NCBI RefSeq assembly: GCF_003334315.1 | Contig: NZ_QOWR01000014.1 | Strand: one strand, 5' to 3' | Length of the DNA stretch: 64,000 bases | Source of the DNA: Escherichia coli | GTDB lineage: Bacteria; Pseudomonadota; Gammaproteobacteria; Enterobacterales; Enterobacteriaceae | Shown: piece after piece, positions 16,380 to 21,159 of the stretch | How positions within the stretch are numbered: the stretch's first letter is position 1 | How the letters are laid out: every line of letters begins with the position of its first letter | The notes under the pieces: model-generated | Databases searched by the model: none | Seen by the model: the letters and a program-made list of their open reading frames with translations, nothing else | Told to the model about the DNA's origin: nothing | Made by a program: the position numbers and the translations under genes

Positions 16380-18977
16380 TTAAACTGCAGTCTGGAAAAT
16401 CACACCATCGGCTTTTTCAGTGTACTGAGAAAGCTGGTTGAAGTTCAGGTAACGGTAAGTATCAACGGCAGTTTTATCCACCTGCGCCACGTAGGTCTGG
16501 TACTCTTCCGGCGTCGGTAGTTTGCCAATCAGCGCCGCAACAGCAGCCAGTTCCGCAGAAGCCAGGAAGACATTCGCGCCAGTCCCCAGACGGTTCGGGA
16601 AGTTACGGGTAGAGGTGGAAACCACCGTCGCACCGTCTGCTACACGCGCCTGGTTACCCATACACAGGGAACAGCCAGGGATCTCGATACGCGCACCGCT
16701 CTTACCGAAGACGCTATAGTAGCCTTCTTCGGTCAACTGCGCGGCATCCATACGGGTTGGCGGTGCCACCCACAGGCGCGTCGGCAACTGGCCTTTGTGC
16801 GCATCCAGCAGTTTACCCGCAGCACGGAAGTGACCGATGTTGGTCATGCAGGAACCGATAAACACTTCGTCGATCTTCTCGCCCTGTACCGCAGACAGCG
16901 GACGTGCGTCGTCCGGGTCGTTCGGTGCACAGAGGATTGGCTCTTTAATATCCGCCAGATCGATGTCGATCACTGCCGCGTATTCCGCATCTGCATCGGC
17001 TTCCAGCAGCTCAGGATTCGCCAGCCATTTTTCCATGCCCTGAATACGACGTTCCAGGGTACGACGATCGCCGTAACCTTCCGCGATCATCCACTTCAGC
17101 AGGACGATGTTAGAGTTCAGGTATTCGATGATCGGTTCTTTGTTCAGCTTGATGGTACAACCAGCGGCAGAACGCTCGGCGGACGCATCGGTTAGCTCAA
17201 AGGCCTGCTCAACTTTCAGATCCGGCAGACCTTCAATTTCCAGGATGCGGCCAGAGAAGATGTTTTTCTTGCCTTTCTTCTCAACGGTCAGCAGACCTTG
17301 TTTGATCGCATACAGCGGAATAGCGTGTACCAGATCGCGCAGGGTGATGCCCGGCTGCATTTTGCCTTTGAAGCGCACCAGAACGGATTCCGGCATATCA
17401 AGCGGCATTACGCCAGTTGCGGCAGCAAACGCCACCAGACCAGAACCCGCCGGGAAAGAGATACCGATCGGGAAACGGGTATGGGAGTCACCACCGGTAC
17501 CGACGGTATCCGGCAGCAGCATACGGTTCAGCCAGGAGTGAATGACGCCGTCACCCGGACGCAGCGACACACCGCCACGGTTCATAATGAAGTCCGGCAG
17601 CGTGTGGTGCGTGTTCACGTCAACTGGCTTCGGATACGCCGCGGTGTGGCAGAAAGACTGCATCACCAGGTCAGCCGAGAAGCCCAGGCACGCCAGGTCT
17701 TTCAGTTCATCACGGGTCATCGGGCCGGTGGTGTCCTGGGAACCTACAGAAGTCATTTTCGGTTCACAGTACGCGCCCGGACGAATGCCTTTCACGCCAC
17801 AGGCACGGCCTACCATTTTTTGCGCCAGCGAGAAGCCGCGATCGCTCTCAGCGACATCTTTCGCCTGACGGAACACATCACTGTGCGGCAGACCAAGTGC
17901 TTCACGCGCTTTGGTGGTCAGGCCACGCCCGATAATCAGCGGAATACGGCCACCAGCACGCACTTCATCAATCAGCACGTCGGTTTTCAGTTCGAAGGTC
18001 GCCAGCAGTTCGCCGGTTTCGTGGTTACGCACTTCACCTTTGTACGGGTAAACGTCAATCACGTCGCCCATGTTCAGGTTAGAGACGTCGACTTCGATTG
18101 GCAGTGCACCCGCGTCTTCCATCGTGTTAAAGAAGATGGGTGCAATTTTACCGCCGAGGCACAAACCACCGCCGCGTTTGTTCGGCACATGTGGAATATC
18201 ATCGCCCATAAACCACAGAACGGAGTTAGTGGCGGATTTACGCGAAGAACCCGTACCCACAACGTCACCGACGTACGCCAGCGGGAAACCTTTCTGTTGC
18301 AGAGCTTCGATTTGCTTGATCGGACCAACAACACCAGGCTGGTCTGGCTCAATACCTTCACGGGCGTTTTTCAGCATCGCCAGCGCGTGCAGTGGGATAT
18401 CCGGGCGTGACCACGCATCCGGTGCCGGAGAAAGGTCATCGGTGTTAGTTTCGCCAGTGACTTTGAAGACAGTAACGGTCAGTTTTTCAGCCAGCGCCGG
18501 GCGATTCAGGAACCATTCGGCATCCGCCCAGGACTGCATAACCTGCTTCGCATATTCGTTGCCTGCTTTCGCTTTCTCTTCTACGTCATAGAAGTTATCG
18601 AACATCAGCAGCGTGTGAGAAAGTGCTTTGGCAGCAATAGGTGCCAGTTTGGCATCATCCAGCGCGTCGATCAGCGGATGAATGTTGTAACCACCCTGCA
18701 TGGTGCCCAGCAGTTCGATGGCTTTTTCCGGAGTCAGCAGAGGGGATTTGGCTTCGCCTTTCGCGATAGCAGCCAGGAAGCCTGCTTTGACATAGGCGGC
18801 TTCATCGACGCCTGGGGGAACACGGTTGGTTAACAGATCTAACAGGAATTCTTCTTCGCCCGCGGGCGGGTTTTTCAGCAGCTCTACAAGTGCGGCCATT
18901 TGGTTTGCATCCAGGGGTTTGGGCGCAATCCCCTCAGCGGCACGCTCAGCTACGTGCTTACGGTATTCTTCTAGCAC
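16380..18977 (-). CDS. acnB: aconitate hydratase B
   Basis: 865-aa protein from GTG 18977 ([12 protein letters not shown]...); track ORF extended to 916 aa. Confidence 0.96.
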
Positions 18978-19331
18978 GACGGTTCTCCTCGCTCTCATTG
19001 TCATAGTGCGGCAGGCGATTCTCTTCACGCTCCTGTGAGACAGCAGTTTGTAGGGTAAATGCCCAGTACCGCAACGGGCAGAATAGCAGGATTTTGACGA
19101 TGTGTTAATCTGTTTACAAAAAAGCAACATAAAAAAGTGGCTGAATCGTTAAGGATGGTCTAGAGATTGTTTCCCTCCGTAAAAACTTCGTTAATTCGCA
19201 TGGTGATAATCACCTTTCTCAACGAATCCCAAGATTAGTCAAAATTTAAACTACCGCCTCTTTATACTCGGATTCACAGCACCTGCGGGTGGCAGTTCGC
19301 CGACCATTGCGATTTCCTTGAGATCCGAATT

Positions 19332-21089
19332 ATGAAAATGACTTTGCCGTTTAAACCCCATGTGCTGGCGCTAATTTGCAGTGCCGGGCTTTGTGCCGCC
19401 TCTACCGGGCTATATATAAAAAGCCGCACAGTGGAAGCGCCTGTGGAACCGCAATCGACACAACAGACTGCGCCTGACATCACCGCAGTTACGCTTCCTG
19501 CAACGGTTTCCGCACCGCCCGTAACGCCCGCCGTCGTCAAATCCGCATTCAGCACTGCACAAATCGATCAATGGGTTGCGCCTGTCGCGCTGTACCCCGA
19601 TTCTCTGCTTTCACAAGTGTTAATGGCATCAACCTATCCGGCAAACGTTGCTCAAGCAGTGCAATGGTCGCACGATAATCCACTTAAACAAGGCGATGCT
19701 GCTATTCAGGCGGTATCTGACCAGCCGTGGGACGCCAGCGTTAAATCACTGGTGGCCTTTCCACAATTGATGGCATTGATGGGCGAAAACCCGCAATGGG
19801 TGCAAAACCTGGGCGATGCTTTTCTGGCGCAGCCGCAGGACGTGATGGACTCGGTACAGCGATTGCGGCAACTGGCGCAACAAACCGGTTCGCTGAAGTC
19901 ATCAACCGAACAAAAAGTTATTACCACAACGAAGAAAGCTGTACCGGTAAAACAGACAGTCACGGCACCCGTCATACCATCCAATACCGTTTTAACTGCC
20001 AGCCCCGTCATTACAGAGCCTGCAACAACCGTCATTTCCATTGAGCCCGCCAATCCTGATGTGGTCTATATTCCCAACTACAACCCAACCGTGGTTTACG
20101 GGAACTGGGCCAATACTGCGTATCCGCCGGTTTATCTGCCACCACCAGCCGGAGAACCGTTTATTGACAGCTTTGTGCGCGGATTCGGCTATAGCATGGG
20201 TGTTGCTACCACGTACGCACTATTCAGCAGCATCGACTGGGATGACGACGATCATGACCATCATCATCATGACGATGATGATTATCATCACCACGATGGC
20301 GGTCATCGTGACGGTAATGGCTGGCAACACAACGGCGACAACATCAATATCGACGTCAACAATTTCAACCGTATCACCGGTGAGCATCTTACTGATAAGA
20401 ATATGGCATGGCGGCACAATCCAAACTACCGTAATGGTGTGCCCTATCATGATCAGGATATGGCAAAGCGGTTTCATCAAACCGATGTCAACGGCGGAAT
20501 GAGCGCCACGCAGCTACCTGCTCCAACACGCGACAGCCAGCGTCAGGCGGCAGCAAGTCAGTTTCAGCAACGAACACACGCCGCCCCCGTCATTACACGA
20601 GATACCCAACGTCAGGCAGCGGCACAGCGGTTTAATGAAGCTGAAAACTATGGGAGCTATGACGACTTCCGCGACTTCAGCCGTCGCCAACCACTGACCC
20701 AGCAACAAAAGGACGCCGCTCGTCAGCGTTATCAGTCGGCCTCGCCTGAGCAGCGCCAGGCAGTCCGCGAGAAAATGCAGACTAACCCACAGATCCAGCA
20801 GCGAAGAGACGCAGCGCGTGAGCGTATTCAGTCCGCCTCGCCTGAGCAGCGCCAGGTGTTTAAGGAAAAAGTACAGCAGCGCCCACTGAACCAACAGCAA
20901 CGTGATAACGCCCGCCAGCGTGTTCAATCAGCATCACCTGAACAACGTCAGGTTTTTCGGGAAAAAGTTCAGGAGAGCCGCCCACAACGTCTAAACGACA
21001 GTAACCATACTGTCAGGCTGAATAACGAGCAACGGTCAGCAGTACGCGAACGTCTCTCTGAGCGCGGAGCAAGGCGACAGGAAAGGTAA
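19332..21089 (+). CDS. yacH: DUF3300-family protein with His/Asp-rich tract and C-terminal tandem repeats
   Basis: 585-aa ORF; signal-like N-terminus; recognised as YacH. Confidence 0.88.
   Translation: MKMTLPFKPHVLALICSAGLCAASTGLYIKSRTVEAPVEPQSTQQTAPDITAVTLPATVSAPPVTPAVVKSAFSTAQIDQWVAPVALYPDSLLSQVLMASTYPANVAQAVQWSHDNPLKQGDAAIQAVSDQPWDASVKSLVAFPQLMALMGENPQWVQNLGDAFLAQPQDVMDSVQRLRQLAQQTGSLKSSTEQKVITTTKKAVPVKQTVTAPVIPSNTVLTASPVITEPATTVISIEPANPDVVYIPNYNPTVVYGNWANTAYPPVYLPPPAGEPFIDSFVRGFGYSMGVATTYALFSSIDWDDDDHDHHHHDDDDYHHHDGGHRDGNGWQHNGDNINIDVNNFNRITGEHLTDKNMAWRHNPNYRNGVPYHDQDMAKRFHQTDVNGGMSATQLPAPTRDSQRQAAASQFQQRTHAAPVITRDTQRQAAAQRFNEAENYGSYDDFRDFSRRQPLTQQQKDAARQRYQSASPEQRQAVREKMQTNPQIQQRRDAARERIQSASPEQRQVFKEKVQQRPLNQQQRDNARQRVQSASPEQRQVFREKVQESRPQRLNDSNHTVRLNNEQRSAVRERLSERGARRQER
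20691..20978 (+). repeat. three tandem 96-bp (32-aa) repeats inside yacH
   Basis: Units start at 20691, 20787 and 20883; each encodes ...ARQR.QSASPEQRQ..EK.Q...; units 1 and 2 share an identical gcctcgcctgagcagcgccagg core. Confidence 0.85.
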
Positions 21090-21100
21090 ATTGCAGACGT

Positions 21101-21130
21101 AAAAAAAGCGGCGTGGTTAGCCGCTTTTTT
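21101..21130. terminator. bidirectional rho-independent terminator between yacH and lpd
   Basis: Stem agcggc/gccgct with loop gtggtta, flanked by A7 upstream and T6 downstream. Confidence 0.8.
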
Positions 21131-21159
21131 AATTGCCGGATGTTCCGGCAAACGAACAA

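Follow-up and report, generated by a model that had tools for sequence, protein, structure and literature searches.

We examined yacH, a gene of the DUF3300 family carried on a stretch of 64,000 nucleotides of Escherichia coli DNA (RefSeq assembly GCF_003334315.1, contig NZ_QOWR01000014.1), hereafter the window, from whose first nucleotide all coordinates are counted. Our findings support a model, to which we give a probability of about 0.8, where two tracts of this one gene, a His/Asp-rich stretch and an array of 96-bp tandem units, are hypervariable in length while staying in frame, change recurrently through slippage or unequal recombination, and are nearly neutral in effect.

Two tracts of variable length

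An earlier note on this DNA, made from the letters alone, had named the gene yacH and counted 585 codons, and both the open reading frame (ORF) and the DUF3300/yacH annotation agree. It had also described three consecutive 32-aa units, whose starts proved exact; they stand head-to-tail at spacings of 96 and 96 nt (Tandem Repeats Finder, TRF, period 96, score 217). The length that the note gave for the K-12 protein, about 617 residues and longer by exactly one unit, was accurate as well: yacH of K-12 MG1655 measures 1854 bp and holds four units. The alignment with K-12 that the note had proposed, like that with the nearly identical UTAK-13, leaves a single clean 96-nt in-frame gap bounded by the repeated core, and the extra 96-bp period of four-unit alleles spans the boundary of units 1 and 2. 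The window allele itself is 100% identical over 1758 bp to that of the complete genome of RM14721. Rather than being identical in length, intact alleles in complete genomes include seven sizes (1758, 1764, 1782, 1815, 1848, 1854, and 1860 bp), next to a frameshifted 1742-bp pseudogene, and among the 120 nearest database proteins the number of units runs from 2 to 5, with intact ORFs at 2, 3, 4, and 5. To gauge frequencies, the repeat region was used as query against 60 evenly spaced genomes of the 5,426 complete E. coli genomes. Three-unit spans were found in 28; a four-unit span (one place of two joined pieces) in nine; K-12-like split matches in 22, the three fetched members of which are all annotated at 1854 bp; and a deeply divergent allele in the remaining one. 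The sample thus holds 28 three-unit against 31 four-unit alleles (~47% vs ~52%), so that each of these forms makes up about half of sequenced E. coli, the 2- and 5-unit forms being uncommon.

The second variable tract lies in the middle of the gene. The earlier note had placed a His/Asp-rich segment at 20239-20320, and the segment is there, but its true limits (table 1) are slightly narrower, by 2 nt at the start, which belong to the codon of the Trp before it, and by 5 nt at the end. Its own length polymorphism is absent from that note. Eleven Asp and nine His make up 20 of its 25 residues, and besides the run of CAT codons it holds a (GAT)3 run at 20274-20282. Among the 120 nearest proteins, the tract takes at least 19 different forms, 11-35 aa long (a count of sequences and not of frequencies), including His runs of 3, 4, 5, and 6 and a triplicated DDDDYHHH block. 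At the level of DNA, versions differ through the gain or loss of whole codons or through short direct duplications, such as +GACCAT in an ST131-type allele, a 24-bp duplication, -CAT, and -GAT. In a 60-genome sample of this segment, 11 genomes differ in its length or arrangement (six with +6 bp, three with -39 bp, one with -6 bp, and one rearranged), and the tract varies in length independently of the 96-bp units.

Both kinds of change recur. With the two variable tracts removed, sequences were grouped by the three remaining segments; the exact protein backbone of the window was found in 14 sequences, which display three- and four-unit forms and nine other versions of the tract, and another three backbones also vary, with 3/4 or 3/4/5 units. 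The occurrence of different unit numbers and tracts on the same backbone argues that the length changes are recent and recurrent and, judged on protein backbones, the changes in unit number appear homoplasic. The other Escherichia are similarly mixed, with three units in E. albertii, four in E. whittamii, and three or four in unnamed lineages. The earlier note had proposed a contraction of the repeat by slipped-strand mispairing or recombination. The difference of one unit is consistent with such a process, but contraction as such is not established: because outgroups and identical backbones carry both states, contraction and expansion are not assignable, and either direction is possible, both probably happening.

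As for the mechanism, we infer that replication slippage at the GAT/GAC/CAT triplet runs would add or remove codons or short blocks, and that neighboring 96-bp units would misalign on perfect identities of 22-53 bp, through slippage or unequal recombination, with the gain or loss of whole units. The near-identical DNA cores that the earlier note saw in units 1 and 2 contain a 22-bp exact repeat, at 20739 and again at 20835, which is the longest perfect inter-unit homology of the window allele and likely the substrate for misalignment. In K-12 the corresponding identity extends over 30 bp, and in UTAK-13 over 53 bp; the prediction follows that recently duplicated four-unit alleles should be the least stable. 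Since both tracts would sit in flexible, poorly ordered segments of the protein (see below), changes in their length would be tolerated; most likely they are nearly neutral, or at most tune a capacity of the protein.

Architecture of the protein and its locus

YacH belongs to DUF3300, a large uncharacterised family (6,616 cluster representatives at E<=1e-10) without a solved or similar structure, and its matches in AFDB50 are all unannotated DUF3300 proteins. In the DUF3300 region, the conserved N-domain (aa 75-200) is helical and is followed by a linker rich in Thr, Pro, and Val and by a β segment. YacH shares with the family the signal peptide, the helical domain, the linker, the β segment, and a basic low-complexity tail; it differs in the expanded His/Asp loop, a trait of the enterobacterial branch, and in the array of 32-aa units, seen in Escherichia. 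Export to the envelope is likely, as predicted from an N-terminus that is the only hydrophobic segment (Kyte-Doolittle maximum 1.91 at aa 11-29, with no second transmembrane-like segment) and from the signal-peptide-like N-termini of its relatives, most family representatives starting with a classical signal peptide with an AxA-like ending. Published predictions label the protein "extracellular" or "outer membrane" (PMC9600279; PMC10048834). In an AlphaFold2 model, built from an alignment of 107 family sequences, the predicted local distance difference test (pLDDT) score is 93-98 at the helical aa 70-200 and ~94 at the β segment (aa 230-270), with aa 360-385 also confident; it drops below 50 at aa 309-335, in the His/Asp tract, and ranges from 45 to 82 in the repeats, modelled as short helices. 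Both the tract and the repeat array thus probably occupy flexible, poorly ordered segments.

Between a nearly invariant Trp303 and the conserved INVN strand, the median loop of the family is 4 aa, whereas that of YacH is 34 aa, 65% of it His/Asp, as judged from an alignment of 106 other DUF3300 representatives. In these, His and Asp make up 31% of the homologous loop versus 6.8% of the whole proteins, and similar His/Asp-rich expansions of the post-Trp303 loop have appeared independently in a few unrelated DUF3300 lineages. An Asp/His-rich tract follows IDWDD in all enterobacterial orthologues, and a Bordetella-like homologue has none. The YacH tract, as aligned, is an enlargement of a normally tiny DUF3300 loop in the enterobacterial branch, where it has grown to ~25-35 residues, nearly all of them Asp or His. 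In published comparisons of Salmonella Typhimurium, strains UK-1, 14028s, D23580, and SL1344 have lost 8 bp of the equivalent tract relative to LT2 (GATCATCA at Asp284), which turns their yacH into a pseudogene (PMC3391293; PMC10048834).

The C-terminal part is repetitive in a wider sense. In the window allele, identity among the three units is 67-72% for DNA and 62-72% for protein; each 32-aa unit consists of two helix-forming half-units of ~16 aa, which start with the capping motifs L-T/N-Q-Q-Q and S-P-E-Q. The C-terminal tail is Gln/Arg-rich throughout, and other genera carry there 1-4 copies of ~17-aa units (NPTAQQQQRR..AK.H.Q or STPEQRQARRENVQQRV); the Escherichia unit looks as if made of two such half-units. 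Given that related genera carry ~17-aa units at the same place, the tail would be a long-standing repeat-evolving module across the group. Upstream of the array, the degenerate pair of 23-aa units (table 1) is itself the site of a 23-aa tandem duplication (protein P0025) and of a 16-bp frameshifting deletion (strain UC4224) in other strains. The net charge is -10 for the His/Asp loop and +14 for the repeats plus tail.

Table 1. Features of yacH and its product in the window.
Feature	Position	Strand	Evidence or remark
yacH coding sequence, three-unit allele, 585 aa + stop	19332..21089	+	ORF; DUF3300 annotation; synteny
Signal peptide or signal anchor, aa 1-30	19332..19421	+	sole hydrophobic segment; putative cleavage
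DUF3300 (PF11737) match, aa 75-333	19554..20330	+	Pfam i-Evalue 1.1e-78; model 2-227 of 227
Asp/His-rich tract DDDDHDHHHHDDDDYHHHDGGHRDG, aa 304-328	20241..20315	+	GAT/GAC/CAT triplet runs, in frame
(CAT)4 run within the tract	20259..20270	+	3 to 6 His codons in database alleles
Degenerate 23-aa unit pair TRDSQRQAAASQFQQRTHAAPVI / TRDTQRQAAAQRFNEAENYGSYD	20526..20663	+	RD.QRQAA kept in all Enterobacteriaceae orthologues
Repeat unit 1 PLTQQQKDAARQRYQSASPEQRQAVREKMQTN	20691..20786	+	TRF, repeat search, alignment
22-bp exact core GCCTCGCCTGAGCAGCGCCAGG, encoding ASPEQRQ	20739..20760, again 20835-20856	+	units 1 and 2
Repeat unit 2 PQIQQRRDAARERIQSASPEQRQVFKEKVQQR	20787..20882	+	repeat search, alignment
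Repeat unit 3 PLNQQQRDNARQRVQSASPEQRQVFREKVQES	20883..20978	+	repeat search, alignment
Basic C-terminal tail, net +5, with degenerate half-unit LNNEQRSAVRERLSER	20979..21086	+	LN.EQRAAVREH in other genera

The gene itself was already known and belongs to the core genome of E. coli and its relatives among the Enterobacteriaceae. By megablast it was found in 5,426 of the 5,426 complete E. coli genomes, annotated as "yacH: DUF3300 domain-containing protein", with at least 80% of its length matched in 5,414. It lies between acnB upstream (minus strand, divergent) and lpdA downstream (minus strand, convergent), an order conserved through the Enterobacteriaceae. The mechanical acnB ORF at 16380-19130 (minus strand, 916 aa) runs past the true start, annotated as the GTG of V-LEEYRK; counted from that GTG, the divergent spacer measures 354 bp. 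A site of the sigma-28 holoenzyme from systematic evolution of ligands by exponential enrichment (SELEX) has been reported within it (PMC5493296). A CpxR box was sought upstream of yacH; the single match, GTAAA-N5-GTAAA with two mismatches at 19263-19277, is uninformative, such matches numbering 55 in the window against 47 expected. Promoter, terminator, and Rfam scans of the yacH region gave nothing specific. Between the convergent yacH and lpdA, a hairpin at 21101-21131 (AGCGGC-GTGGTTA-GCCGCT, flanked by an A-run and a T-run) looks like a bidirectional terminator common to both genes, though the consensus scan gave no flag there.

Other alleles of yacH depart from the window in further ways. 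In UC4224 (L004:301-2042) yacH, annotated as a pseudogene, is frameshifted by the 16-bp deletion, which lies in the QRQAAA...THAAPV region. In E69 (CP089930.1; L014:4093-4880) the gene is broken and inactivated by an insertion of ~770 bp with IS1-like ends and a 9-bp target duplication, GGTTTGCCT. In L3_E36, an enterotoxigenic E. coli (NZ_LR882997.1; L041:~798-960), the sequence from the end of the tract onward is the reverse complement of downstream yacH, a small inversion that could be real or an assembly error; this copy is annotated as frameshifted. In-frame tandem duplications or deletions are also scattered across strains (proteins P0002, P0021, P0025, P0033, P0039, P0071, and P0107), with gains of LMA, 16 aa (LAQPQDVMDSVQRLRQ), 17 aa, 19 aa (MAWRHNPNYRNGVPYHDQD), 23 aa, and 45 aa, and an in-frame deletion of IQQR occurs on 249 contigs; the whole gene is unusually tolerant of length change. 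Deeply divergent yacH was seen in AST85 (L008:1001-2860) and in eight other genomes of the 60-80% identity band. The AST85 protein is 76% identical to that of the window (dS ~2), below the 80% best-segment identity of E. albertii, and its neighbors match at 98.8% (lpdA) and 96.4% (5' end of acnB) DNA identity; the allele was either imported or belongs to a cryptic-clade strain labelled E. coli. A record titled Chryseobacterium sp. 18061 (L034) holds an enterobacterial acnB-yacH pair, with an AcnB 94% identical to that of E. coli, a wrong label or a mixed culture being the probable cause.

Selection, loss, and alternative readings

Comparisons of the window allele with K-12 or B2-type alleles gave a ratio of nonsynonymous to synonymous divergence (dN/dS) of 0.13-0.14 over the whole of yacH, 0.02-0.04 in the N-domain, and 0.08-0.15 in the repeat and tail segment, with a dS of 0.11-0.29, several-fold above that of lpdA (0.027). 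A dN/dS of ~0.13 means that YacH is maintained by purifying selection; the protein is kept, yet fast-evolving. Could the lengths of the two tracts nevertheless be selected? Diversifying or fluctuating selection by cationic antimicrobial peptides, metals, or host immunity might set the number of units and the length of the loop, and with them the capacity to bind cations and anionic polymers. The recurrent changes on identical backbones, the roughly 50/50 split of three- and four-unit forms, and the growth of this loop into His/Asp-rich forms in several distant lineages of DUF3300 would all fit, as would the separation of charge between the loop (-10) and the repeats plus tail (+14). So would a study that describes yacH as CpxR-regulated, reports its mRNA to be reduced by protamine (citing an earlier observation of this effect with cecropin A), and reports better survival of the deletion mutant in protamine (PMC9600279). 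Against this stand the lack of a phenotype tied to any allele, the low dN/dS of the repeat and tail segment, which carries no sign of positive selection, and the narrow range of 2-5 units of modest identity, unlike that of high-frequency switching loci. The many other in-frame duplications scattered along the gene suggest simple tolerance, and yacH has been lost in some lineages (PMC3391293). On balance we consider selection on tract length unlikely, if the best placed of the alternatives.

The charge pattern, taken together with the CpxR and protamine reports, leads to a working model, reasonable but unproven, of a cation-binding loop and a tail that would bind a polyanion. Pressed further, YacH would be a tunable envelope polyelectrolyte, whose acidic His/Asp loop catches divalent metals or cationic antimicrobial peptides while the basic helical-repeat tail anchors it to an anionic envelope polymer, lineages resizing both by slippage under selection from host peptides or metals. 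We regard this fuller picture as improbable; if true, it would make yacH a locus of in-frame capacity variation under such selection.

Length variation might instead be the first symptom of decay in a dispensable gene drifting to loss. The frameshift of UC4224 (-16 bp), the IS1 insertion of E69, and the rearranged, frameshifted copy of L3_E36 point that way, as do the pseudogenes of several S. Typhimurium strains (PMC3391293) and a deletion mutant that is viable and does better in two assays, survival in protamine (PMC9600279) and the yield of recombinant green fluorescent protein (PMC7376861). The identity of YacH between genera is 46-58%, versus 91-100% for the flanking AcnB and LpdA. Yet the low dN/dS, above all in the N-domain, is at odds with drift; the gene is matched over at least 80% of its length in nearly every complete genome, a sample of 100 copies includes only ~2 with a frameshifted-pseudogene annotation, synteny is conserved across the Enterobacteriaceae, and the full-length database alleles examined differ only in frame. 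Decay is thus very improbable. Finally, tandem repeats are a classic site of collapse in short-read assembly, but there is practically no chance that the three-unit form is such an artefact, refuted as it is by the identity of the window allele to a finished genome and by the three-unit forms of ~47% of the sampled complete genomes, on several divergent backbones, with a 288-bp array of 67-72% identical units being, moreover, readily spanned by reads.

Recurrent, nearly neutral change by slippage or unequal recombination therefore remains the preferred reading, and several points weigh against parts of it. Units that are only 67-72% identical, with a core of 22 bp, imply that slippage should be infrequent in the window allele. 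Recurrence was judged on protein backbones and not on a genome phylogeny, and part of the signal could come from recombination that carried tracts from one lineage to another. The frequencies of unit numbers rest on 60-genome samples from a clinically biased collection. The envelope localisation of YacH is a prediction, a structure search of the PDB found no structural relative, and neither metal-binding nor chaperone families turned up as homologues in Pfam, NCBIfam, or PDB searches.

The findings overturn nothing in current understanding. They do imply that length-based gene calling, allele calling in core-genome multilocus sequence typing, and pseudogene flags need care at yacH, given its 96-bp and small codon indels, and that the gene could be an extra size marker in typing. 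They also illustrate how a conserved, Cpx-linked protein of predicted envelope location tolerates repeated change in two charged modules.

Comparison with known systems

Searches for a function were unrewarding: NCBIfam gave no functional assignment, a sequence search of the PDB returned only compositional matches (His tags and, at a non-significant E of 9.6, the ZnuA loop), and in literature combining yacH with zinc or with acnB/lpdA nothing relevant was found besides the sigma-28 SELEX site. YacH resembles CpxP, Spy, and ZraP in its reported Cpx regulation (PMC9600279), in its predicted periplasmic site, and in the L-T-x-x-Q or S-P-E-Q helix caps set in a Gln/Arg-rich context, but the resemblance is confined to this short capping motif. 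Membership of the LTXXQ group (PF07813, PF13801) was rejected, with no hidden Markov model match at E<=10 in the whole protein, in its tail, or in 21 orthologous tails, none in NCBIfam, and none in a PDB search with the tail profile; only weak, non-significant matches were seen, to RskA_N (0.044), DUF1104 (0.26), and DUF3106 (0.78).

His-rich metal-binding loops and tails are found in ZnuA, in ZraP, and at the ends of SlyD and HypB. Like these, the YacH tract mixes runs of His with Asp in a flexible loop of a protein predicted to lie in the envelope; it differs in having as much Asp as His (net -10), in being polymorphic in length within a species, and in its lack of homology. Binding of cations or metals by the loop is plausible from its composition.

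The closest parallel is offered by the coding variable-number tandem repeats (VNTRs) of envelope and surface proteins, used in multiple-locus VNTR analysis (MLVA) of E. coli and Shigella. Like them, yacH has head-to-tail units of a length that is a multiple of three (96 bp, or 32 codons, in frame), with recurrent in-frame differences in copy number between strains, attributable to slippage or unequal recombination; unlike published MLVA loci, its copy range is narrow (2-5) and its units have already diverged (67-72% identity). The MLVA locus ms11, also with a 96-bp unit, was considered as a possible name for the yacH repeat and rejected, its primers being absent from the window. With up to three mismatches allowed, the 64-kb window held no match to any of the 34 primers that make up the Gorge panel of seven loci and GECM-10, the generic E. 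coli panel of ten (ms06-ms32, CVN001-017, and CCR001; PMC8215070; PMC4644529; PMC8143711); yacH is none of the published MLVA loci compared.

The contingency loci of Neisseria, Haemophilus, and Campylobacter also carry short repeats within envelope-protein genes and change by slipped-strand mispairing. The periods of yacH, 3 and 96 bp, preserve the frame, in contrast to those loci, and therefore yield variation in length and not ON/OFF switching; the frameshifted alleles arise from deletions other than of repeat units, inversion, or IS1, and neither the 8-bp deletion of Salmonella nor the 16-bp deletion of UC4224 is a reversible repeat change. No published description of length polymorphism in yacH was found in the literature, and its double in-frame polymorphism is best filed as a fresh example of a well-known kind of variation.

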